Source: Escherichia coli (GTDB lineage Bacteria; Pseudomonadota; Gammaproteobacteria; Enterobacterales; Enterobacteriaceae). From it: 64,000 nucleotides of DNA. The position numbers and the translations under genes were made by a program. The DNA lies in assembly GCF_046105845.1 (NCBI RefSeq), contig NZ_CP151004.1; one strand, given 5' to 3'. The notes beneath the pieces are model-generated. The model made no database searches and was not told where the DNA came from. It worked only from the letters and a program-made list of their open reading frames with translations. Shown in pieces: positions 6,553 to 22,600 of this stretch. Position 1 is the stretch's first letter, and each line of letters begins with the position of its first letter.

Positions 6553-8571
6553 TTAGACGGCAATAGCGATTAGCAGCACAACCAGTGCGGCGACCACATA
6601 CAGGCAATAGAGACGAAAGTCGCCGCTTTGCAGATGCTGTATTTCTTTGGCCAGCCGTTGGGTGGCGCTCACGATGGGGCGGATCACCCGCTCATCCCAG
6701 AAGGGTTCTGTGCTCTGAGCCCTGGCGGTGACATGCGCAAGACCTTTGTTCAGCCTCAGCGTAGGGTCGAGCTGTTGTCGTAGACGAAATAGCGCACAAA
6801 AGACCACACGCAGCGGCTGCATCACGCCATTGCCTGACGGGGCCATCGCATTTTCCCAGCCGTAGCCGCATGCCCAGGCATCTCCTGTGCGACGAAACGC
6901 TGCGCGGCGCGAACGACACCACAGCCAGTAAAGGCCAGGCAGCAAAGGCATCGCCAGTAGTAACAGCAACAGTAATGAGGGAGTGACCCGTGTATGAAAC
7001 GTGCCGGGTACAAGTGCTATTCCGCTGGCGACAGTGACGGGAGGGGTATTGGTAAACGCATGGGCAATGTGCATTATCTTCGGTGCCAGCCAACTGGCAC
7101 TAAGCGCAATTAATATGCAGAGTGCCGCGAGCAGTAGCATGGCGACGATCATCGTATTTGGCACTTCCTGTGCCTCTTCAGCGTGTGTACTGCGCGGCGC
7201 TCCACAGAAAGTAATACCGTACATTTTGACGAAGCACATTACTGCCAGCCCACCAGTGACTGCCAGCATCACCATAGCAATAGGACCCGCAAGTTGTAGC
7301 GCTACGGCTTCCACACGACTTAGTGAGAACAGCGACTGCCAGGTGTACCATTCGCTGATAAAACCATTCAGCGGAGGAATGGCTGATATCGCGAGGCAAC
7401 CAATCAGGCATGCTGCGGCTGTCCACGGCATACGTTTCGCCAGTGCCCCCATTTTTTCCATGTCGTGGGTATGCAAACGCGAAATAATCGCACCCGCGCC
7501 GAGAAACAGCAGCCCTTTGAACAGCGCATGGTTGAGCAGATGAAACAGCGCGCCGAGCAGTCCAACAACGGTGAGCAGCGGGTCGTGCAGTGACAGACCG
7601 ACCATCGCCACACCGACCGCCAGCAAAATAATGCCGACGTTTTCGACGGTACTCCAGGCCAGCAGCCGTTTGATATCCTGTTCCGCCAGCGCATACAGCA
7701 CGCCCAGGAGCGCGGAGATTGCGCCGATCGCCATCACCAGAATGCCCCACCACAGCGGCAAACCCGTTTGCGCCAGCAGGTCCATCGCTACTTTCAGGAT
7801 GCCGAAAATACCGATTTTGACCATTACGCCAGACATCAACGCCGAAGCGTGCGATGGTGCGGCAGGGTGAGCGCGTGGCAACCAGCTGTGCAACGGCATC
7901 ATCCCGGCTTTCGCGCCAAAACCGAAGAAGGCCAGCAGGAACACCGCCGACGCCAGCCCCGGAGAAAGTGAAAGCGTGCGGAAACTGGCAAAATCGAGGC
8001 TGCCGCTTTCGCGCCACATCAGCAAGAAGGCGATCATAATCAGCACCGATCCGGCGTGGGCGATAAAAAAGTAGAGCATGCCAGCGTTGATCGACGTTTT
8101 ATCCTGCCTGGCAATGACCAGAAACCAGGAAGACAGCGACATCATTTCAAACAGCACGATGAACCAAAAAGCGTTGTCCATCACCAGCAGGGCAACCATC
8201 GATGCGATGAAAATATTCATAAAGAAGCCCATCGCCGCCGCGCCTTTGCCCTCGTATTCGCGCATATAAGTCAATGAATAGAGCGAACAAACTACCACCA
8301 GCAAGGAGATAACCAGCACCATAAATGCCGAGAGGCTATCCATTCGCAGGGTTAAATCGGCAAAGTCAAAAGGGGTTGCAAAACGGGCGACTAAAGTTAC
8401 GCCTGCATGTAATTGCGTAATTCCGCTGATGATGCCAATCACGCCGCCCACCAGCGATGTGATGCCGGAAAGCTTAATAGCCAGTCTGTCCAGACCGAGT
8501 AAAAACAGCGAAGCCAGACTGGCAAACAGATAGAGAATCAGCGACCAGGTTAATAATTGCAGGGCATCCAT
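6553..8571 (-). CDS. hyfB: Hydrogenase-4 membrane subunit HyfB (NuoL/HycC-like)
   Basis: 672 aa polytopic ORF, antiporter-like motifs (WLPRAHPAAPS). Confidence 0.93.
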   Translation of the reverse strand: MDALQLLTWSLILYLFASLASLFLLGLDRLAIKLSGITSLVGGVIGIISGITQLHAGVTLVARFATPFDFADLTLRMDSLSAFMVLVISLLVVVCSLYSLTYMREYEGKGAAAMGFFMNIFIASMVALLVMDNAFWFIVLFEMMSLSSWFLVIARQDKTSINAGMLYFFIAHAGSVLIMIAFLLMWRESGSLDFASFRTLSLSPGLASAVFLLAFFGFGAKAGMMPLHSWLPRAHPAAPSHASALMSGVMVKIGIFGILKVAMDLLAQTGLPLWWGILVMAIGAISALLGVLYALAEQDIKRLLAWSTVENVGIILLAVGVAMVGLSLHDPLLTVVGLLGALFHLLNHALFKGLLFLGAGAIISRLHTHDMEKMGALAKRMPWTAAACLIGCLAISAIPPLNGFISEWYTWQSLFSLSRVEAVALQLAGPIAMVMLAVTGGLAVMCFVKMYGITFCGAPRSTHAEEAQEVPNTMIVAMLLLAALCILIALSASWLAPKIMHIAHAFTNTPPVTVASGIALVPGTFHTRVTPSLLLLLLLAMPLLPGLYWLWCRSRRAAFRRTGDAWACGYGWENAMAPSGNGVMQPLRVVFCALFRLRQQLDPTLRLNKGLAHVTARAQSTEPFWDERVIRPIVSATQRLAKEIQHLQSGDFRLYCLYVVAALVVLLIAIAV

Positions 8572-11523: not shown

Positions 11524-12558
11524 ATGGCTTACTCTGTTCAAAAGTCGCGCCTGGCAAAGGTTGCGGGTGTTTCGCTTGTTTTATTACTCGCTGCCTGTAG
11601 TTCTGACTCACGCTATAAGCGTCAGGTCAGTGGTGATGAAGCCTACCTGGAAGCGGCACCGCTTGCGGAGCTTCATGCCCCGGCTGGAATGATTTTGCCG
11701 GTGACCTCCGGTGATTATGCAATCCCGGTGACCAACGGTAGTGGTGCTGTCGGTAAGGCGCTGGACATTCGTCCACCAGCCCAGCCGCTGGCACTGGTTT
11801 CTGGCGCGCGTACCCAGTTCACGGGCGATACCGCTTCATTGCTGGTGGAAAATGGTCGTGGCAATACTCTGTGGCCGCAGGTGGTTAGCGTGCTGCAGGC
11901 GAAAAACTACACCATCACCCAACGTGATGATGCTGGTCAGACACTGACCACCGATTGGGTACAATGGAACCGTCTGGACGAAGACGAGCAGTATCGTGGT
12001 CGTTATCAAATCTCTGTTAAGCCGCAGGGTTATCAGCAGGCGGTTACGGTTAAACTGCTGAACCTGGAACAGGCGGGCAAACCGGTTGCAGACGCGGCTT
12101 CCATGCAGCGTTACAGCACGGAGATGATGAACGTTATTTCCGCCGGTCTGGATAAATCTGCCACTGACGCCGCGAACGCTGCGCAAAATCGTGCCTCCAC
12201 CACTATGGACGTACAAAGTGCAGCTGATGACACCGGTTTACCAATGCTGGTCGTACGCGGGCCGTTCAATGTGGTTTGGCAACGTCTGCCAGCGGCGCTG
12301 GAAAAAGTGGGCATGAAAGTGACCGACAGCACCCGTTCGCAGGGCAACATGGCCGTAACTTACAAGCCGCTGTCTGACAGCGACTGGCAGGAACTGGGCG
12401 CGAACGATCCAGGCCTGGCATCCGGTGACTATAAACTGCAGGTTGGCGATTTAGATAACCGCAGCAGCCTACAGTTCATCGATCCGAAAGGTCATACTCT
12501 GACTCAGAGTCAGAACGACGCGCTGGTAGCTGTCTTCCAGGCTGCGTTTAGCAAGTAA
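11524..12558 (+). CDS. bamC: Outer membrane protein assembly lipoprotein BamC (NlpB)
   Basis: 344 aa; lipoprotein signal with lipobox LLAACSS; immediately downstream of dapA. Confidence 0.95.
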
Positions 12559-12564
12559 AAATAC

Positions 12565-12591
12565 AGGGCTGGAATCATCCGGCCCTTTTTT
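12565..12591 (+). terminator. Intrinsic terminator after bamC
   Basis: agggctgg-aatcat-ccggccct hairpin followed by a six-T run. Confidence 0.65.
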
Positions 12592-12601
12592 CTGATATGA
12601 T

Positions 12602-12617
12602 ACGCAAACGTGTGCGT
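12602..12617 (+). promoter_or_regulatory. PurR operator (pur box) upstream of purC
   Basis: ACGCAAACGTGTGCGT, a 15/16 match to the palindromic pur-box ideal ACGCAAACGTTTGCGT. Confidence 0.65.
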
Positions 12618-12663
12618 CGGCAGGAAAACGCCATTTTAGCGGTAATTCGCACGAAATTTGTTT

Positions 12664-12707
<44 letters not shown>

Positions 12708-12770
12708 ACATCCAGCACACCAGACAGCAAAAGATTTTAAAACGTTAATTCACACCCAGGAGTGATAAAG

Positions 12771-13484
12771 ATGCAAAAGCAAGCTGAGTTGTATCGTGGT
12801 AAAGCGAAAACCGTATACAGCACGGAAAACCCGGACCTGTTGGTGCTCGAATTCCGCAATGATACGTCAGCAGGGGATGGCGCGCGCATTGAGCAGTTTG
12901 ATCGCAAAGGTATGGTGAACAACAAGTTCAACTACTTCATTATGAGCAAACTGGCTGAAGCGGGTATCCCGACTCAAATGGAGCGTCTGCTCTCCGATAC
13001 CGAATGTCTGGTGAAAAAGCTGGATATGGTGCCGGTTGAGTGTGTCGTGCGTAACCGTGCTGCTGGCTCTCTGGTGAAACGTCTTGGAATCGAAGAAGGT
13101 ATTGAGCTGAACCCGCCGCTGTTCGATCTGTTCCTGAAAAACGACGCCATGCACGATCCGATGGTCAACGAATCTTACTGCGAAACCTTTGGCTGGGTGA
13201 GCAAAGAGAACCTGGCGCGTATGAAAGAGCTGACCTACAAAGCGAACGACGTGCTGAAAAAACTGTTCGATGATGCTGGTCTGATTTTGGTCGACTTTAA
13301 ACTGGAGTTTGGCCTGTACAAAGGTGAAGTGGTACTGGGCGATGAGTTCTCCCCGGACGGCAGCCGCCTGTGGGACAAAGAAACGCTGGAGAAAATGGAC
13401 AAAGACCGTTTCCGCCAGAGCCTCGGTGGCCTGATCGAAGCCTATGAAGCCGTTGCCCGCCGCCTGGGTGTACAGCTGGACTGA
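12771..13484 (+). CDS. purC: Phosphoribosylaminoimidazole-succinocarboxamide synthase PurC
   Basis: 237 aa from ATG 12771 ([28 protein letters not shown]...). Confidence 0.96.
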
Positions 13485-13500
13485 TTTTTCTATTCATCAT

Positions 13501-13525
13501 CTTGCCGTGCTGCTGGCACGGCAAG
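13501..13525 (+). terminator. Stable hairpin downstream of purC (terminator-like, no U-tract)
   Basis: cttgccgtgc-tgctg-gcacggcaag, perfect 10 bp stem 17 bp after purC stop; no T-run follows. Confidence 0.4.
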
Positions 13526-13651
13526 ACAACCGCTCTCATAAGATGTGCATTGAACGCTCATTCCTCCGCCATTTCATCCCGCTTTCCTGTGGTAATCTTC
13601 CTCTGAACCACCTACGATCATTTCTATAATGAATATATTGTTGAGGTATCT

Positions 13652-14515
13652 ATGCGTTGGCAAGGGCGACGTGAAAGTGACAATGTTGAAGACAGGCGCA
13701 ACAGCTCTGGTGGTCCGTCTATGGGCGGTCCCGGTTTTCGCCTGCCAAGCGGTAAAGGCGGGCTGATTTTACTGATAGTCGTGCTGGTTGCAGGCTACTA
13801 TGGCGTTGATTTAACCGGGTTGATGACCGGACAGCCGGTTTCCCAACAGCAATCAACACGGTCAATTAGCCCAAATGAAGACGAAGCCGCAAAATTCACT
13901 TCGGTGATTCTGGCAACCACGGAAGACACCTGGGGACAGCAATTCGAGAAGATGGGTAAAACCTATCAGCAACCGAAGCTGGTCATGTACCGTGGAATGA
14001 CGCGCACCGGCTGCGGGGCGGGCCAGTCCATTATGGGACCGTTCTATTGCCCGGCGGATGGCACGGTTTATATCGATCTCTCCTTCTATGATGAAATGAA
14101 AGACAAACTTGGCGCGGATGGCGATTTTGCCCAGGGGTACGTTATCGCCCATGAAGTCGGTCATCATGTGCAGAAACTGTTAGGCATCGAGCCGAAAGTT
14201 CGTCAACTGCAACAAAACGCGACGCAGGCGGAAGTGAACCGCTTATCTGTGCGTATGGAACTCCAGGCCGACTGTTTTGCTGGTGTCTGGGGGCATAGTA
14301 TGCAGCAGCAAGGCGTTCTGGAAACCGGCGATCTGGAAGAGGCGCTGAACGCGGCGCAGGCCATCGGCGATGACCGTTTACAACAGCAAAGTCAGGGGCG
14401 AGTAGTACCAGACAGTTTCACTCATGGCACTTCTCAGCAACGCTACAGCTGGTTTAAACGTGGTTTCGACAGCGGCGATCCGGCACAATGCAATACTTTT
14501 GGTAAAAGCATTTAA
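13652..14515 (+). CDS. ypfJ: Uncharacterised putative zinc metallopeptidase YpfJ
   Basis: 287 aa; N-terminal membrane anchor; HEVGHH zinc-binding motif ([12 protein letters not shown]). Confidence 0.9.
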
Positions 14516-14529
14516 CTTCCGGGGCAGGG

Positions 14530-16545
14530 ATGGCTGAACTGACTGCGCTTCACACATTAACAGCGCAAATGAAACGTGAAGGGATCCGCCGCTTGCTGGT
14601 GTTGAGCGGGGAAGAGGGTTGGTGTTTTGATCATGCGCTTAAGTTGCGTGATGCTTTACCTGGCGACTGGCTGTGGATTTCGCCGCAGCCAGTCGCTGAA
14701 AACCACTGTTTTCCCTCGGCGCTACAAACTTTACTTGGGCGCGAGTTCCGGCATGCGGTATTCGACGCCCGCCACGGCTTTGATGCCGCTGCCTTTGCGG
14801 CACTTAGCGGAACGTTGAAAGCGGGAAGCTGGCTGGTTTTGTTACTCCCTGTATGGGAAGAGTGGGAAAACCAACCTGATGCCGACTCGCTGCGCTGGAG
14901 TGATTGCCCTGACCCTATTGCGACGCCGCATTTTGTCCAGCATCTCAAACGCGTACTTACGGCGGATAACGACGCTATTCTCTGGCGGCAAAACCAGCCG
15001 TTCTCGTTGGCGCATTTTACTCCCCGTACTGACTGGCACCCCGCGACCGGCACACCACAACCAGAACAACAGCAACTCTTACAGCAGTTACTGACCATGC
15101 CGCCGGGCGTGGCAGCGGTAACGGCTGCGCGTGGGCGCGGTAAATCGGCGTTGGCAGGGCAACTCATTTCTCGTATTGCGGGCAGTGCGATTGTCACCGC
15201 GCCCGCAAAAGCGGCAACGGATGTACTGGCACAATTTGCGGGCGAGAAGTTTCGCTTTATTGCACCGGATGCCTTGTTAGCCAGCGATGAGCAAGCCGAC
15301 TGGCTGGTGGTCGATGAAGCCGCAGCCATACCTGCGTCGTTGTTGCATCAACTGGTATCGCGTTTTCCTCGAACGTTGTTAACCACTACGGTGCAGGGCT
15401 ACGAAGGTACCGGACGTGGTTTTTTGCTGAAATTTTGCGCTCGCTTTCCGCATTTACACCGTTTTGAATTGCAACAGCCGATCCGCTGGGCACAGGGATG
15501 CCCGCTGGAAAAAATGGTTAGTAATGCACTGGTTTTTGACGATGAAAACTTCACCCATACACCACAAGGCAATATCGTCATTTCCGCATTTGAACAGACG
15601 TTATGGCGAAGCGATCCAGAAACGCCGTTAAAGGTTTATCAGTTATTGTCTGGCGCGCACTACCGGACCTCGCCGCTGGATTTACGCCGTATGATGGATG
15701 CACCAGGGCAACATTTTTTACAGGCGGCTGGCGACAACGAGATTGCCGGAGCGCTGTGGCTGGTGGATGAGGGCGGATTATCTCAAGAACTCAGTCAGGC
15801 GGTATGGGCAGGTTTTCGTCGCCCGCGGGGTAATCTGGTGGCCCAGTCGCTGGCGGCGCACGGCAGCAATCCACTGGCAGCGACATTGCGTGGACGGCGG
15901 GTAAGCCGGATAGTAGTTCATCCGGCGCGTCAGCGGGAAGGCACAGGGCGGCAACTGATTGCTGGTGCTTTGCAATATACGCAAGGCCTCGACTATCTTT
16001 CGGTGAGTTTTGGTTACACCGGGGAATTATGGCGTTTCTGGCAACGCTGCGGATTTGTGCTGGTGCGAATGGGTAATCATCGTGAAGCCAGCAGCGGTTG
16101 CTATACGGCGATGGCACTGTTACCGATGAGTGATGCGGGTAAACAGCTGGCTGAACGTGAGCATTACCGTTTACGTCGCGATGCGCAAGCTCTCGCGCAG
16201 TGGAATGGCGAAACGCTCCCTGTTGATCCACTAAACGATGCCGTCCTTTCTGACGACGACTGGCTTGAACTGGCCGGTTTTGCTTTCGCTCATCGTCCGC
16301 TATTAACATCGTTAGGTTGCTTAATGCGTCTGTTACAAACCAGCGAACTGGCATTACCGGCGCTGCGTGGGCGTTTACAGAAAAACGCCAGTGACGCGCA
16401 GTTATGTACCACACTTAAACTTTCAGGCCGTAAGCTGTTACTGGTCCGTCAACGCGAAGAAGCTGCGCAGGCGCTGTTCGCACTTAATGATGTTCGCACT
16501 GAGCGTTTGCGCGATTGCATAACGCAATGGCAATTTTTTCACTGA
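14530..16545 (+). CDS. tmcA: tRNA(Met) cytidine acetyltransferase TmcA
   Basis: 671 aa; Walker A RGRGKS; C-terminal GNAT-like region. Confidence 0.93.
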   Translation: MAELTALHTLTAQMKREGIRRLLVLSGEEGWCFDHALKLRDALPGDWLWISPQPVAENHCFPSALQTLLGREFRHAVFDARHGFDAAAFAALSGTLKAGSWLVLLLPVWEEWENQPDADSLRWSDCPDPIATPHFVQHLKRVLTADNDAILWRQNQPFSLAHFTPRTDWHPATGTPQPEQQQLLQQLLTMPPGVAAVTAARGRGKSALAGQLISRIAGSAIVTAPAKAATDVLAQFAGEKFRFIAPDALLASDEQADWLVVDEAAAIPASLLHQLVSRFPRTLLTTTVQGYEGTGRGFLLKFCARFPHLHRFELQQPIRWAQGCPLEKMVSNALVFDDENFTHTPQGNIVISAFEQTLWRSDPETPLKVYQLLSGAHYRTSPLDLRRMMDAPGQHFLQAAGDNEIAGALWLVDEGGLSQELSQAVWAGFRRPRGNLVAQSLAAHGSNPLAATLRGRRVSRIVVHPARQREGTGRQLIAGALQYTQGLDYLSVSFGYTGELWRFWQRCGFVLVRMGNHREASSGCYTAMALLPMSDAGKQLAEREHYRLRRDAQALAQWNGETLPVDPLNDAVLSDDDWLELAGFAFAHRPLLTSLGCLMRLLQTSELALPALRGRLQKNASDAQLCTTLKLSGRKLLLVRQREEAAQALFALNDVRTERLRDCITQWQFFH

Positions 16546-16618
16546 CTCCTTCAATTTTCTCCCATGGTCATTGTGAGTCAGCGGCGTAAAATTAATGACA
16601 TCAGTTAAGGAGTTCGCC

Positions 16619-17317
16619 ATGAAACATGACCATTTTGTTGTTCAAAGCCCGGATAAACCTGCGCAACAGTTGTTACTGCTTTTCCACGGTGTCGGGGATA
16701 ACCCGGTGGCAATGGGGGAAATAGGCAGCTGGTTTGCGCCGCTATTTCCTGATGCGCTGGTGGTGAGTGTCGGTGGCGCGGAGCCGAGCGGTAATCCGGC
16801 GGGGCGTCAGTGGTTTTCGGTGCAGGGTATTACGGAAGATAATCGCCAGGAGCGTGTGGATGCCATCATGCCGACGTTTATTGAAACGGTACGCTACTGG
16901 CAGAAACAGAGCGGAGTAGGGGCTAACGCCACGGCGCTAATCGGTTTCTCACAAGGCGCGATTATGGCGCTGGAGAGCATTAAAGCCGAACCGGGCCTTG
17001 CTTCGCGCGTCATTGCCTTCAACGGACGCTACGCGAGCCTGCCGGAAACTGCGTCTACAGCCACGACAATTCACCTGATTCATGGCGGTGAAGATCCGGT
17101 TATCGATCTGGCGCATGCGGTTGCGGCGCAGGAAGCGTTAATCAGTGCCGGTGGTGACGTGACGCTGGATATCGTGGAGGATTTAGGCCATGCGATCGAC
17201 AATCGCAGTATGCAATTTGCCCTGGATCACTTGCGTTATACCATTCCGAAACATTATTTCGACGAAGCGCTAAGTGGCGGTAAGCCTGGCGATGATGATG
17301 TGATTGAAATGATGTAA
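16619..17317 (+). CDS. ypfH: Esterase YpfH (phospholipase/carboxylesterase family)
   Basis: 232 aa from ATG 16619 preceded by AAGGAG; nucleophile-elbow motif GFSQG. Confidence 0.92.
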   Translation: MKHDHFVVQSPDKPAQQLLLLFHGVGDNPVAMGEIGSWFAPLFPDALVVSVGGAEPSGNPAGRQWFSVQGITEDNRQERVDAIMPTFIETVRYWQKQSGVGANATALIGFSQGAIMALESIKAEPGLASRVIAFNGRYASLPETASTATTIHLIHGGEDPVIDLAHAVAAQEALISAGGDVTLDIVEDLGHAIDNRSMQFALDHLRYTIPKHYFDEALSGGKPGDDDVIEMM

Positions 17318-17325
17318 TAATAGCC

Positions 17326-17390
17326 GGGTAGGCCTGATAAGACTGTATCAGGCATCATGGCCGGATGTGGCGTGAACGCCTTATCCGGCC
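17326..17390. repeat. Composite REP (BIME-like) element between convergent ypfH and ypfN
   Basis: gtaggcctgataagac...atcaggc followed by ggccggatgtggcgtgaacgccttatccggcc (canonical REP). Confidence 0.75.
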
Positions 17391-17397
17391 GCTCAGC

Positions 17398-17598
17398 TTA
17401 CTTCTTCGGTTGATCCTTTTTCGGCCAGTCGTCGTCATCGTCCCACTTATCGTTGAAATCACGATGCGGGGGAAGCTCCGGCTTGTTGGCGAGAAATTTC
17501 TTATGGTCGACGCGCTTGAGATCTTTAATCACGTTCAGCAGGACGCCTACCAAAAAGACAATCACCAGAATCCACCAATATTTAGCCAGCCAGTCCAT
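17398..17598 (-). CDS. ypfN: Small membrane protein YpfN
   Basis: 66 aa from ATG 17598 ([34 protein letters not shown]...); one TM helix then an acidic tail. Confidence 0.88.
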
Positions 17599-17625
17599 GC
17601 TTATTTCCTCTTGCAGAACCACTCA

Positions 17626-18753
17626 TCAGGCGACGAGCTGTTCCATGATACGTTGATACATACGGGCAAGTAGCTGCAGGTCGGCAGCGTTCACACATTC
17701 ATTAATTTTATGAATAGTGGCATTGACCGGCCCGAGTTCCACCACCTGCGCCCCCATGCGGGCAATAAAGCGCCCGTCGGACGTTCCGCCTGTGGTCAGT
17801 AGCTGCGGTTTAATTTCATTATAGTGCTCAACCGCGTTAACGACCGCATCCACCAGTTTACCTCGCGCGGTCAAAAATGGCTGCCCGGAAAGCCACCAAT
17901 CCACCGTATAGCGCAGTTGATGTTTTTCAAGCAGGGCAAGTACCTGCGCTTTGATCATCTCATCAGTCAGTTCGGTACTGAAGCGGAAGTTAAACTGCAC
18001 AAACAGTTCACCCGGAATAACGTTGTTACTGCCCGTTCCCGCCTGAATATTGGCAATCTGCATACTGGTCGCCGGGAAGAATTCATTGCCCTGATCCCAC
18101 TCAATAGCCACTAATTCATTAAGGAAAGGTGCTGCGCGATGTACCGGATTGTCAGCCAGATGTGGGTAGGCAACATGCCCCTGCACGCCATGAATGGTGA
18201 GGTTGCAGGTTAACGATCCGCGACGACCATTTTTCACCACATCACCTACCACTTCGATACTCGACGGTTCGCCGACCAGGCAGTAATCGAGACGCTCATT
18301 ACGCGCCATTAACGCTTCGACGACTTTTACCGTACCGTTGTGGGCACTGGCTTCTTCATCAGAGGTGATCAGAAATGCCAGTCGTCCCGTATGGTTGGGA
18401 TGTTGTGCGACAAAGCGTTCTGCAGCTACCACCATCGCCGCCAGCGAGCCTTTCATATCTGCCGCACCGCGCCCGAATAACATACCGTCACGAATGGTCG
18501 GTTCAAACGGCGGATTGATCCAACGATCGGCGTCGCCAGGCGGCACCACGTCGGTATGCCCGGCAAAGGCCAACGTTTCACCTTGCCCACGCCATGCCCA
18601 AAAATTCTGCGTATCGGCAAAATCCATGCGTTCAACGGTAAAACCGATCGCCTGCAAACGTTCAATCAACAAAGCCTGGCATCCTGCGTCATCAGGACTC
18701 AGGGAAGGGCGGCGAATAAGCTGTTGTGTCAGCTCAATAACCGGGCACGACAT
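17626..18753 (-). CDS. dapE: Succinyl-diaminopimelate desuccinylase DapE
   Basis: 375 aa; M20 peptidase family sequence; start 3 bp after yffB stop. Confidence 0.96.
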
Positions 18754-18756
18754 AGA

Positions 18757-19131
<375 letters not shown>

Positions 19132-19493
19132 CTATGAGAATAAATACTCATTTAAGGGTGAAAACATTTTGCCTGCAAATGATTATCAGGAAATATAACA
19201 TTATCGAAGTATTAAAATTAACAACTATTAAATAATATTAAACATTTTTAACGTAAACATTAAGAATATTCATCTTGTTATCTGTCTGTATTTTAACCAG
19301 AATTAAATCAGTATTAGATGCCGTATGAATATCTCGAAATGTTGCTGTGTATCACATACAAATCATCACCGCAGGACCATAGTATTTACATAAGGTTTGT
19401 CCCCCGGAGGTAGTCATCGCAGCAATCGAGTAAATTAGCTTCACCACGGTATATTGTTTCCGTAGAATACCCATAATTATAAGAGAGGTTGTT

Positions 19494-19553
19494 ATGATTG
19501 AACGTGAACTGGGGAACTGGAAAGACTTTATCGAAGTTATGCTTCGTAAGTAA
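19494..19553 (+). CDS. ypfM: Small protein YpfM (19 aa)
   Basis: ATG at 19494 preceded by AGAGAGG; MIERELGNWKDFIEVMLRK; below the ORF-track size cut-off. Confidence 0.7.
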   Translation: MIERELGNWKDFIEVMLRK

Positions 19554-19613
19554 TTCCTGAGACAAAGTACAAACAGCAAGAACCCGCTGAGCAGGTTCTT
19601 AATCGGAAAGTTG

Positions 19614-19648
19614 AAAAAGGCGACACATTGGCATGTCGCCTTTTTTAT
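19614..19648. terminator. Bidirectional intrinsic terminator between ypfM (+) and acrD (-)
   Basis: aaaaaggcgacacattggcatgtcgcctttttt: GC stem flanked by A-run and T-run, directly after acrD stop (19652). Confidence 0.8.
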
Positions 19649-19651
19649 TGC

Positions 19652-22600
19652 TTATTCCGGGCGCGGCTTCAGCGGGAAGCGGCGGCGCACCAGCACAAAG
19701 AACAGCGGCACGAAGTAAATAGCCAGAATAGTGGCCGAAATCATCCCGCCCATTACGCCAGTACCCACCGCATGCTGACCACCGGAACCGGCACCCGTGC
19801 TGGTTGCCATTGGCAATACGCCGAAGATAAATGCCAGCGAGGTCATCAGAATCGGGCGTAAACGCTGACGGCAGGCGTGGAGCGTCGCTTCAAACAGGTC
19901 GTGGCCTTTTTGGTTCATCTCGTTAGCAAACTCGACGATCAGGATGGCGTTTTTCGCCGATAAACCAATGACCGTTAACAGGCCCACCTGGAAGTAAACG
20001 TCGTTTTCCAGCCCGCGCATCCAGGTTGCCAGCAGCGCGCCGATAACCCCCAGCGGCACGACCAGCATTACCGAGAACGGCACCGACCAGCTTTCATACA
20101 GCGCCGCCAGACACAGGAATACCACCAGCAAGGAAATGGCGTACAGCGCCGGAGCCTGCGCGCCGGAAAGCCGCTCCTGATACGACATCGCCGTCCACTC
20201 CAGACCAAAGCCGTTTGGCAGCTGCTTCACTAACGATTCCATAATATCCATCGCCGTACCGGTACTGACCCCCGGTGCGGCTTCCCCGACAATCTCTACC
20301 GCAGAATAACCGTTATAGCGTTCCAGACGCGGCGAGCCTGTCTCCCAGCGTGAGGTCGCGAAAGCAGAGAAGGGCACCATGCCGCCATCTTTATTTCGGA
20401 CATACCAGAGATTGATGTCATCTGGCAGCATGCGATATGGCGCAGCTGCCTGCACATAGACTTTCTTCACGCGACCGCGATCCATAAAGTCATTCACATA
20501 GCTCGAACCCCAGGCGGTTTGCAGCGTGTCGTTAATATCGTCGATAGCAACGCCCAGCGCCTGAGCTTTACGCTGGTCGATATCGATCTGCAACTGCGGA
20601 CTGTCATCGAGGCCGTTATGGCGCACACGGGTTAGCTCCGGGTTTTCCGCCGCCAGCGCCAGCAACTGGTTACGTGCTGCCATCAGCGCATCGTGACCTG
20701 CCCCAGCGTGGTCCTGCAACTCCATATCAAAACCTGCAGAACTGCCAAGACCGCTAATTGCTGGCGGGCTGCTGGCGATAACGCGAGCTTCTTTAATCTT
20801 GTTAAACGCCTTCGTTGCACGCTCGATAATGGCAAACGAGGTGCCGGTCTTACTGTCGCGTTCGCTCCAGTCTTTCAGGCGGATAAACATTCGCGCCACG
20901 TTTTGCCCGTTACCCCCAGGGCCAGAACCAACGGTGGCAAACACCGACATGATGTTGTCTTTTTCATGGGTGAAGTAATATTTCTCGATTTGCTCAACGA
21001 CTTTCAGGGTCTGTTGTTGGGTTGAACCGCTGGGCAACTGTACCGAGGTAGTAAACATGCCACGGTCTTCAAGTGGCAAGAACGACGTCGGCAAACGCAG
21101 GAACAGGAACACCATGCCGCCAAGCAGCAGGACATAAATCACAATCCAGCGCAGGCTACGGTGGAGAATTTTCGCCACCCCTTTTTCGTAGCGTTCGGCG
21201 TTGCGGTTAAACATCTGGTTAAACCAGGCAAAAAAGCCTTTTTGCCCGTGATGCTCACCCTTTTTCAGTGGCTTAAGTAGCGTGGCACACAGAGCCGGAG
21301 TGAGGATCATCGCTACCAGTACTGACAGCACCATCGCCGCAACAATGGTAATAGAGAACTGGCGATAGATGGCACCGGTGGTGCCGCCGAAGAAGGCCAT
21401 TGGTACAAATACCGCCGAAAGCACCATCGCAATCCCGACCAGTGCCCCCTGGATCTGCCCCATCGATTTACGTGTGGCTTCGCGAGGAGTGAGTCCTTCC
21501 TCACTCATAATACGTTCGACGTTTTCCACCACCACGATGGCGTCATCCACCAGCAGACCGATCGCCAGCACCATCGCGAACATGGTTAAGGTGTTGACGC
21601 TGTAACCGAAGGCATAAAGTACGGAGAAGGTTCCCATCAACACCACCGGCACGGCAATAGTGGGTATCAGCGTGGCGCGGAAGTTTTGCAGGAACAGATA
21701 CATAACGAGGAAAACCAGAGCGATAGCTTCCAGCAGCGTTTTCACCACGTCTTCAATGGAGGCTTTAACAAACGAGGTGGTTTCATACGCCACCTTGTAT
21801 TCCAGTCCATGCGGGAAATACTGCGCCAGCTCGTCAAGACGATTGAGCACCAGCTCCGCTGTCGCCATTTCGTTCGCGCCGGAGGCCAGTTTTACCCCCA
21901 ACCCGGAGGCTGGCTTACCATTGAAGCGGCTAAGATAATCGTATTTCTCCGCCCCCATTTCGACGGTGGCGACATCGCCCAGCCTTACCTCTGAGCCGTC
22001 CTGATTCACCCGCAAGGTGATATCGCGGAACTGTTCTGGTGTTTGCAGCAGTGACTGGGCGTTAATGGTGGCGTTGAGCGCCTGCTTATCGACGGAAGGT
22101 GTACCACCAAGTTGCCCAACCGCAATCTGCGCGTTCTGTGACTCAATGGCATCAGTGACATCTTTAGCCGTCATCTGGAAACTGTTGAGTTTCGCCGGGT
22201 CCAGCCAGATACGCATGGAATATTGCGAACCATAGGCATCGATATCCCCGACGCCATTCACGCGGCTTAACGGATCCTGAATATTACTGGCAACGTAATC
22301 GGCAATATCCTGTTTATCCATCGAACCATCGGTAGAGACGAAGGCAATGGTCAGAATATTGGTATCGCCGGTTTTACGCACCGTCACGCCCTGATTTTGC
22401 ACCGCCTGCGGTAACTTTCGCATGGCTGATTGCAGCTGGTTTTGTACTTGCTGCACGGCTTCGTCCGGATCGGTGCCTGCTTTAAAACTTAAAGTGACAG
22501 ATGCCTGGCCGGTGCCACTGCTCTGAGACGACATATACATCAAATTATCGAGGCCGGTCATATTTTGCTCGATAACCTGGGTCACGGTGTTTTCCAGCGT

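Follow-up and report, generated by a model that had tools for sequence, protein, structure and literature searches.

The ypfJ-tmcA-ypfH row of Escherichia coli: three enzymes in a probable inherited synteny block with layered transcription

Analysis of the ypfJ, tmcA, and ypfH genes of Escherichia coli indicates that they are very likely a core row of three independent enzymes, adjacent by inheritance and served by layered transcription. YpfJ, TmcA, and YpfH would act independently of one another, and their adjacency would reflect an inherited synteny block without a shared pathway. Three lines of evidence are presented: the predicted properties of the enzymes, the retention of the genes across Enterobacterales, and the promoter and terminator signals of the locus.

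Organization of the locus

The window is a 64,000-nucleotide stretch of E. coli DNA, in which an ORF scan placed the row on the plus strand at 13652-17317. The genes are ypfJ (13652-14515, 287 aa), tmcA (14530-16545, 671 aa), and ypfH (16619-17317, 232 aa), separated by spacers of 14 and 73 bp that are the same in the RefSeq E. coli annotation. An alternative ATG is located upstream of ypfH at 16595. These coordinates agree with the sequence-only reading, which had described three co-directional genes spaced 14 and 73 bp apart, and the motifs it had named (HEVGHH of YpfJ, RGRGKS of TmcA, and GFSQG of YpfH) were all located in the translations. The row was found in 5425 of 5426 complete E. coli genomes, where it is annotated alike, with the top match 98.7% identical; it is an ordinary core E. 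coli gene row that is already known and annotated. Close spacing of same-strand genes is widespread in bacterial genomes, and thus the arrangement is real yet not statistically unusual.

Downstream of ypfH, two REP-type hairpins (17323-17392, no strand assigned; fold z = -4.5 and -5.9) end the row and set it apart from the convergent ypfN-dapE genes, where ypfN (UPF0370; 17398-17598, minus strand) is among the neighbours most often retained beside tmcA in Enterobacterales. An Rfam match to the REP-derived naRNA4 (17331-17390) was under the gathering score, and no regulatory RNA was detected by Rfam in or around the row, where only sub-threshold REP/naRNA4 and STnc250 matches were found.

Predicted properties of the three enzymes

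YpfJ was assigned to the KPN_02809/PF04228 family of membrane-anchored zinc metallopeptidases by full-length matches to PF04228 (498 bits; cut-off 23) and NF050010 (381 bits; cut-off 250). The protein carries HEVGHH at residues 167-172, an invariant E203, and four invariant Cys residues, consistent with an HExxH zinc site plus third ligand on a gluzincin fold. Its N-terminal 16 residues are strongly conserved, and a hydrophobic segment at residues 36-54 (2.05 on a 19-residue Kyte-Doolittle window) fits the N-terminal membrane anchor that had been proposed. By these sequence features, YpfJ would be a gluzincin-type zinc endopeptidase that spans the inner membrane once, with a catalytic domain predicted to face the periplasm.

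TmcA, the tRNA(Met) cytidine-34 N4-acetyltransferase, was identified by Pfam and by its match to PDB 2ZPA. All four Pfam domains (TmcA_N, helicase, GNAT, and tRNA-binding) were matched, and the Walker A motif RGRGKS (R201-S206) and D262-E263 were invariant among 33 homologues, with homologue diversity taken from a 50%-representative search. The single NCBIfam match was to the haloarchaeal equivalog and, as expected, fell under its cut-off. As judged from these domains and motifs, TmcA acetylates elongator tRNA-Met to form ac4C34, using ATP and acetyl-CoA. Deletion of tmcA is described in the literature to reduce ac4C to a trace and to increase AUA misreading. TmcA is presumed to be cytoplasmic because its substrate is tRNA.

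YpfH matched the alpha/beta-hydrolase esterase families PF02230 (201 bits) and NF008525 (429 bits; cut-off 191) over its full length. The ORF and alignments revealed GFSQG at residues 109-113, with D159 and H191 invariant and S111 present in at least 90% of the sequences. These residues assign YpfH as a Ser-Asp-His esterase/thioesterase, which is predicted to be cytoplasmic. YpfH is also listed with E. coli enzymes that carry a thioesterase annotation or have been reported to be thioesterases (PMC11367265).

These properties bear on a true three-gene operon with a shared role, in which YpfH or YpfJ acts on acetyl-CoA, on ac4C or other acetylated species, or on TmcA itself. TmcA consumes acetyl-CoA and YpfH is among the reported thioesterases (PMC11367265), either of which could be taken to suggest such a role; however, the catalytic domain of YpfJ is predicted to be periplasmic, and the candidate ac4C eraser of E. 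coli in the literature is the ASCH protein YqfB, which is unlinked to the row. YpfH and YpfJ were each considered as an ac4C eraser and set aside, as no supporting evidence was found and the role has been proposed for YqfB.

Synteny of the row across Enterobacterales

Gene order was compared at 69 assessable Enterobacterales tmcA loci, with presence scored at the tmcA locus only. The trio was complete at 43 loci, while ypfJ alone accompanied tmcA at 15, ypfH alone at 2, and neither at 9. Thus, ypfJ and ypfH can each be lost while the other remains. The raw counts (43/15/2/9) reveal a correlation between the two absences, which is likely phylogenetic because most of the joint absences trace to a few lineages. 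Overall, ypfJ was kept beside tmcA at 58/69 loci and ypfH at 45/69, whereas the flanking genes were retained more often: purC at 63/69, bamC at 62/69, ypfN at 64/69, and dapE at 65/69. In addition, a DUF441 gene is positioned between ypfJ and tmcA in Yersiniaceae, Pectobacteriaceae, Budviciaceae, and Morganellaceae. The earlier suggestion that the trio points to a shared physiological context is not borne out by this pattern, in which the flanking genes are better kept than either ypfJ or ypfH and DUF441 intervenes.

More distant genomes were also compared. Neither PF04228 nor PF02230 was found near tmcA at three Rodentibacter (Pasteurellaceae) loci, where the neighbours were unrelated, and of six distant TmcA homologues examined, the four lying outside the Enterobacterales-type block likewise had unrelated neighbours with no PF04228 or PF02230 nearby. 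Linkage above background synteny and in distant taxa, as would mark a functional cluster, was not observed across the 69 loci and the distant homologues. The sequence-only reading had held that its idea would fall if linkage were absent past Escherichia and its close relatives; the complete trio was seen at 43 of the 69 Enterobacterales loci, and the linkage is gone outside the order. Comparative genomics offers no ground for expecting joint function. The three-gene operon with a shared role, for which the intact trio at 43/69 loci could be cited, is highly improbable given that tmcA persists without ypfH at 24/69 loci and without ypfJ at 11/69, that linkage falls below that of the housekeeping genes on either side and does not extend past Enterobacterales, and that DUF441 splits ypfJ from tmcA in four families.

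A narrower arrangement would be a selected bicistronic unit of ypfJ and tmcA that co-regulates an envelope protease and a translation-fidelity enzyme, with ypfH independent. The gap between the two genes, 14 bp in E. coli, was found to span about 3-67 bp at every locus of Enterobacteriaceae and Erwiniaceae that could be assessed, and tmcA has no assigned transcription start site (TSS), both of which are compatible with such a unit. Counter to this, direct adjacency is broken by DUF441 in the four families above, ypfJ is not beside tmcA in Photorhabdus, Dickeya, Pectobacterium, Brenneria, Edwardsiella, and Rouxiella, and the two functions are without any link; hence we regard selection for this pairing as unlikely.

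Transcription signals of ypfJ and tmcA

Alignment of 19 Enterobacteriaceae purC-ypfJ spacers identified an upstream control region of ypfJ (13590-13630, plus strand), composed of two invariant blocks, TGGTAATC (13590-13597) and CCTACGATC (13611-13619), followed by TATAAT (13625-13630). A published TSS is positioned 4 nt before the ypfJ ATG (K-12 coordinate 2594763, minus strand, 9 reads; Kim et al. 2012, supplementary table) and mapped to 13648 on the plus strand of the window with zero mismatches. The same table assigns no TSS to tmcA and lists a weak site within tmcA that is assigned to ypfH (K-12 2592278, 3 reads), which mapped to 16133 (plus strand), 486 nt 5′ of ypfH. Start sites internal to coding regions were thus observed at two places in the locus, 13364 (purC) and 16133 (tmcA). 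A dapA-ypfJ read-through transcript has also been published (SMRT-Cappable-seq) and is the sole transcript of the row in the portion of the literature reached.

The intervening sequences were scanned for terminators and folded. No terminator-like sites were detected in either spacer (14516-14529 or 16546-16618), and the junction folds were not significant (z = +0.45 for ypfJ-tmcA and -1.26 for tmcA-ypfH), in accord with the earlier statement that no terminator-like hairpin separates the genes. A hairpin in the 73-bp gap was considered as a terminator and rejected, as it has no U-tract and a z-score of -1.26. The plus-strand terminator-like sites within 13652-17317 (15238, 15321, and 16258) are all inside the tmcA coding sequence, and the 10 sites found on both strands of 12000-19500 are no more than expected from shuffled sequences (8.7 ± 3.2). 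Upstream, a GC-rich hairpin 3′ of purC (13500-13526, plus strand; 12-bp stem, 3-nt loop, no U-tract; region z = -2.75) is at most a leaky barrier.

We suggest that ypfJ is driven by read-through from dapA/bamC/purC together with a promoter just 5′ of ypfJ, and that the same transcription very probably reaches tmcA over the 14-bp spacer (14516-14529, plus strand), which by scans and folding has no terminator or promoter-like site. Co-transcription of ypfJ and tmcA is plausible because the gap is 14 bp, a TSS is located just 5′ of ypfJ, and none is assigned to tmcA; the two genes probably share one transcript. Three wholly independent transcription units, with a tmcA promoter inside ypfJ, would be in keeping with the occurrence of internal start sites at 13364 and 16133. 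This layout is very doubtful, however, as the Kim et al. 2012 table assigns no TSS to tmcA, the promoter scan found no promoter-like site toward the 3′ end of ypfJ, and no terminator follows that gene.

A conserved promoter-like footprint upstream of ypfH

A promoter scan and an alignment of 21 Enterobacteriaceae sequences predicted a ypfH promoter and ribosome-binding site at 16563-16612 (plus strand). This region includes an invariant CATGGTCAT with a -35-like TGGTCA (16565-16570), a 16-nt spacer of variable sequence, a -10-like TAAAAT (16587-16592) inside an invariant GCGTAnAnT, and the Shine-Dalgarno (SD) sequence AAGGAG (16607-16612). The footprint is conserved across all 21 sequences, and the -10-like element is retained in most other families sampled, with the GCGTA type present in Serratia, Rahnella, Dickeya, Erwinia, and Pantoea. 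The 73-bp gap thus probably holds a conserved sigma-70-type promoter for ypfH itself, with activity predicted from the conserved elements, and this promoter may feed ypfH in addition to upstream transcription, perhaps as its main source. The one start site that has been published for ypfH, backed by 3 reads, sits in tmcA, away from the predicted promoter. Pairing in the mRNA of the invariant CATGGTCAT with the ypfH codons CATGACCAT was examined and rejected, as the coding side is variable, with CACGATCAT in several genera, and shows no compensating change.

These findings divide the proposal that the trio is co-transcribed: it is plausible for ypfJ-tmcA by the 14-bp gap and the TSS data, but ypfH has a promoter footprint of its own, which also speaks against the three-gene operon despite its tight spacing. 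The genes are consecutive without an intervening terminator, as in a single operon; in contrast, a single upstream promoter with none internal does not describe the locus, given the gap footprint, the TSS in tmcA, and the read-through from dapA. Separate promoters and terminators for each gene had been named as grounds for abandoning co-transcription, and the ypfH footprint supplies part of this picture while terminators between the genes are absent.

Implications

That selected co-transcription of ypfJ-tmcA in Enterobacteriaceae and Erwiniaceae couples the expression of a protease facing the periplasm, or of the YpfH thioesterase, to acetylation of tRNA-Met is extremely improbable. If it were true, coupling could run through acetyl-CoA availability or envelope stress, and ypfJ or ypfH mutants would have a tmcA-like decoding phenotype. 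For the preferred reading of three independent enzymes, the outcome matters little, as gene identities, gene order, and the bulk of the biochemistry have been documented before. The natural substrates of YpfJ and of YpfH are two separate questions, and a useful small point is that ypfH, as judged from its aligned upstream region, probably has its own conserved promoter.

Comparison with known systems

The row corresponds in genes, order, and spacing to E. coli K-12 ypfJ (b2475), tmcA/ypfI (b2474), and ypfH (b2473). The K-12 neighbours are likewise the same, with bamC and purC upstream and ypfN, dapE, and yffB downstream; the differences are allelic only, with mismatches clustered in ypfJ and tmcA.

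YpfJ shares the NCBIfam equivalog NF050010 and the HExxH motif with its Klebsiella pneumoniae orthologue KPN_02809, a proven Zn protease with a single bound Zn, whose cleavage of casein is blocked by EDTA, phenanthroline, and DTT and whose activity is lost in the H171S and E172D variants (PMC3269727). The glutamate-mutant protease assay proposed earlier is thus already in the literature for the orthologue, where E172D is inactive, and the description of ypfJ and ypfH as encoding two uncharacterised hydrolases needs revision in view of this protease and the thioesterase list (PMC3269727, PMC11367265). Protease activity has been shown for the Klebsiella protein only, and zinc-protease activity of E. 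coli YpfJ is predicted by orthology. No solved structure matching YpfJ by sequence was found; identity to the gluzincins M13 PepO/neprilysin, M4 thermolysin, and M48 BepA/HtpX is 10-16%, and unlike these enzymes the YpfJ family carries a conserved tail at the N-terminus and a TM anchor that are particular to it.

YpfH resembles the PF02230 phospholipase/carboxylesterases (5DWD, 4FHZ) in its GFSQG nucleophile elbow and aligned Asp and His, although even the nearest solved structures are only distant matches (E = 5e-17 for 5DWD). TmcA matches the crystal structure of E. coli YpfI (PDB 2ZPA) over its full length (1488 bits) and shares its four-domain architecture and Walker A motif, whereas the eukaryotic NAT10/Kre33 proteins, whose targets are rRNA and tRNA position 12, match it over the helicase C-terminal and GNAT part only (E about 1e-20).

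Organization of the ypfJ-tmcA-ypfH row

The ORF list contained three co-directional genes on the + strand, ypfJ (13652-14515, 287 aa), tmcA (14530-16545, 671 aa), and ypfH (16619-17317, 232 aa, with an alternative in-frame ATG at 16595), separated by gaps of 14 bp (ypfJ-tmcA) and 73 bp (tmcA-ypfH), in agreement with the positions called in the sequence-only reading. Its claim that no terminator hairpin lies between the genes also held, as no terminator-like site was found in either gap and RNA folding of both gene junctions gave no significant structure; across the scanned region such sites numbered 10, compared with a shuffle expectation of 8.7 ± 3.2. Of 5426 complete E. coli genomes searched by megablast, 5425 contained the segment, its genes carrying the names ypfJ, tmcA, and ypfH. 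The best E. coli match had an identical layout and gap sizes: dapA-bamC-purC precede the row in the same orientation, and ypfN-dapE-yffB converge on it from downstream. This arrangement is of normal appearance for a bacterial gene row. The REP pair 3′ of ypfH (17323-17392) folded strongly on both strands; these REP-type hairpins and that at 12674-12709 matched Rfam naRNA4 below threshold (53 bits versus a gathering score of 59.5). Another sub-threshold Rfam match, to STnc250 (19533-19652; 37.5 bits versus 42, E = 1.5e-4), lies a short way 3′ of where RefSeq places ypfM, a small protein gene, in the best-matching E. coli genome.

Promoters and transcripts of the row

Transcription start sites of Kim et al. 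2012, mapped to the window, were located at (i) 12608, the purC start site (24 reads); (ii) 13364, within purC (4 reads); (iii) 13648, 4 nt 5′ of the ypfJ start codon (9 reads); and (iv) 16133, within tmcA and assigned to ypfH (3 reads), with none in that table assigned to tmcA. According to SMRT-Cappable-seq, the "dapA-ypfJ operon" arises when the dapA-bamC terminator is read through in a condition-dependent manner, and the hairpin that follows purC (13500-13526) was found to be without a U-tract. Within the purC-ypfJ spacer, TGGTAATC (13590-13597) and CCTACGATC (13611-13619) varied little or not at all among 19 genera and were followed by TATnAT; neither bears an obvious likeness to any regulator site known to us. 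Initiation at 13648 would yield a near-leaderless ypfJ mRNA without the GAGG Shine-Dalgarno. Transcripts common to ypfJ and tmcA would stem from the ypfJ promoter and upstream read-through, and co-transcription of the two genes is probable.

A textbook promoter footprint was detected in the tmcA-ypfH spacer by promoter scan and comparison of 21 aligned Enterobacteriaceae sequences. The stretch CATGGTCAT (16563-16571), which holds a -35-like TGGTCA (16565-16570), was identical in 20 of the 21, with a G-to-T change in Leclercia; 3′ of the TGGTCA came a 16-nt spacer of free sequence, an invariant GCGTAnAnT with the -10 element TAAAAT (16587-16592), and then a free stretch, AGGAG, and the ypfH ATG. 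GCGTA(T/G)A(G/A)T also occurred 5′ of ypfH in Serratia, Rahnella, Dickeya, Erwinia, and Pantoea, where its distance to the start codon varied. We infer that ypfH has its own promoter in this gap and would be served by it together with any read-through from tmcA. The proposed co-transcription of all three genes is retained as probable for ypfJ-tmcA and is called into question for ypfH by this conserved footprint. Conservation of CATGGTCAT is tighter than needed by the -35 hexamer alone, and the stretch may also be a regulator binding site. In many genera, but not in E. coli, the stop codon of tmcA lies at a perfect palindrome, TTAACTGA-N5-TCAGTTAA. Adams et al. 2021 reported an RNA 3′ end antisense to ypfH at U00096.3 2593424. 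This end suggests that the convergent dapE-ypfN transcript passes the REP hairpins and extends ~350 nt into ypfH. The K-12 coordinate presumably corresponds to ~16966 of the window, minus strand, as estimated with an assumed offset of +1979 between K-12 sequence versions.

Conservation of linkage at tmcA

Diverse TmcA homologues were collected, of which 33 were aligned, and one genome per GTDB species was scanned. The 80 tmcA loci comprised 77 from Enterobacterales (seven named families and one unclassified MAG) and 3 from Rodentibacter; neighbors were called by tblastn with eight proteins encoded in the window, and counts were taken from the 69 loci that had sufficient sequence on either side, absences referring to the tmcA locus only. 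The bamC-purC-ypfJ-tmcA-ypfH block facing ypfN-dapE-yffB was syntenic across Enterobacterales. Both ypfJ and ypfH accompanied tmcA at 43 of the 69 loci, ypfJ only at 15, ypfH only at 2, and neither at 9, such that the flanking genes (purC, 63/69; bamC, 62/69; ypfN, 64/69; dapE, 65/69) were retained more often than ypfJ (58/69) and ypfH (45/69). In raw counts the absences of ypfJ and ypfH were correlated, with most joint absences coming from a few lineages. No ypfH adjoined tmcA in any sampled Morganellaceae or Budviciaceae, nor in five Erwiniaceae, two Enterobacteriaceae, Rouxiella, Pectobacterium, and Acerihabitans; ypfJ was likewise missing in Photorhabdus, Dickeya, Pectobacterium, Brenneria, Edwardsiella, Rouxiella, and one Providencia.

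A DUF441 (PF04284) membrane-protein gene of ~150 aa was found directly 5′ of tmcA on the same strand, between ypfJ and tmcA, in Yersinia, Rahnella, and Rouxiella (Yersiniaceae), Pectobacteriaceae, Budviciaceae, and Morganellaceae (collected loci, in their own coordinates: L043 7580-7966, L050 7452-7886, L065 7474-7917, L032 7543-7986, L082 5534-5989, L083 101-556, and 20 more). At L082 and L083, the two loci for which genes had been called, 11-17 bp separated the DUF441 gene from tmcA, and in Photorhabdus the gene stays at tmcA though ypfJ, purC, and bamC are gone. In E. coli it was found neither at tmcA nor elsewhere in the 64-kb window. Because DUF441 intervenes elsewhere, the 14-bp ypfJ-tmcA juxtaposition is limited to Enterobacteriaceae, Erwiniaceae, Serratia, and Hafnia. 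None of the neighbors of tmcA seen in Enterobacterales was found at the three Rodentibacter loci, and four distant TmcA homologues (34-36% identity) adjoin ybeY/mraZ, a RES-Xre toxin-antitoxin pair, thioredoxin/psd, and rhomboid/porin, with no PF04228 or PF02230 neighbor. Since the flanks are kept more often and neighbors outside Enterobacterales are unrelated, linkage of the trio is not above background and ends at the order boundary; the shared physiological context proposed for these genes fails this comparative test, which the sequence-only reading had itself called for.

Properties of the encoded proteins

The claimed motifs were located at YpfJ 167-172 (HEVGHH), TmcA 201-206 (RGRGKS), and YpfH 109-113 (GFSQG), and the N-terminal membrane anchor ascribed to YpfJ corresponds to a hydrophobic segment at residues 36-54. 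YpfJ matched PF04228 with 498 bits and also hit NF050010, an NCBIfam equivalog named "KPN_02809 family neutral zinc metallopeptidase"; no solved structure was matched in a search with its sequence. The purified Klebsiella orthologue binds ~1 Zn and cleaves casein; EDTA, phenanthroline, and DTT inhibit it, and either of the substitutions H171S and E172D leads to loss of activity (PMC3269727); with E172D, the glutamate-mutant protease assay called for in the sequence-only reading already exists. An AF2 model built from 56 orthologues had a mean pLDDT of 74, with the catalytic core mostly >80, and H167, H171, H172, E203, and all four cysteines were invariant in the orthologue alignment. The K/R distribution around the TM segment (7 before, 2 after), the cysteine invariance, and the inhibition by DTT suggest that YpfJ is oriented N-in/C-out, with its catalytic domain in the periplasm. 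Residues 1-16 (13652-13699), preceding the TM helix, are near-invariant in the 56 orthologues (pLDDT ~75, short strand at residues 12-14), a degree of conservation that is puzzling in a segment predicted to be cytoplasmic when the protease itself is predicted to be periplasmic. At locus L028 of Klebsiella sp. BIGb0407, which also lacks ypfH, the gene at the ypfJ position (7147-7965) is only 44% identical to E. coli YpfJ versus 74-92% for its neighbors, suggestive of a copy that has diverged or been replaced.

TmcA contained the four expected domains and matched PDB 2ZPA over its full length. It diverges much faster than the neighboring proteins: the E. albertii TmcA shares 88% identity versus 96-100% for BamC, PurC, YpfJ, YpfH, YpfN, and DapE (YffB, 90%), and that of Citrobacter 74% versus 83-97%. 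Relative to the best E. coli genome, mismatches cluster in ypfJ (11) and tmcA (39), and from ypfH to yffB one base differs, in dapE; the uneven divergence along the row suggests a recombination mosaic. YpfH matched PF02230 and NF008525, with G-F-S-Q-G, D159, and H191 conserved, and its esterase activity was reportedly shown in the 2005 enzyme-genomics screens of Kuznetsova and coworkers.

Shared function is further weakened because the inferred compartments differ (YpfJ versus TmcA and YpfH) and because the candidate ac4C eraser of E. coli, the ASCH protein YqfB, is unlinked to the row. Selected co-expression of the row genes with a functional link is considered highly improbable. Overall, the earlier interpretation is partly supported: the gene calls stand, as does probable co-transcription of ypfJ with tmcA, and the shared function does not. 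The row itself is already known, with all of its genes annotated and largely characterized, including TmcA, whose established role is to form ac4C34 on elongator tRNA-Met, a modification that prevents misreading of AUA.
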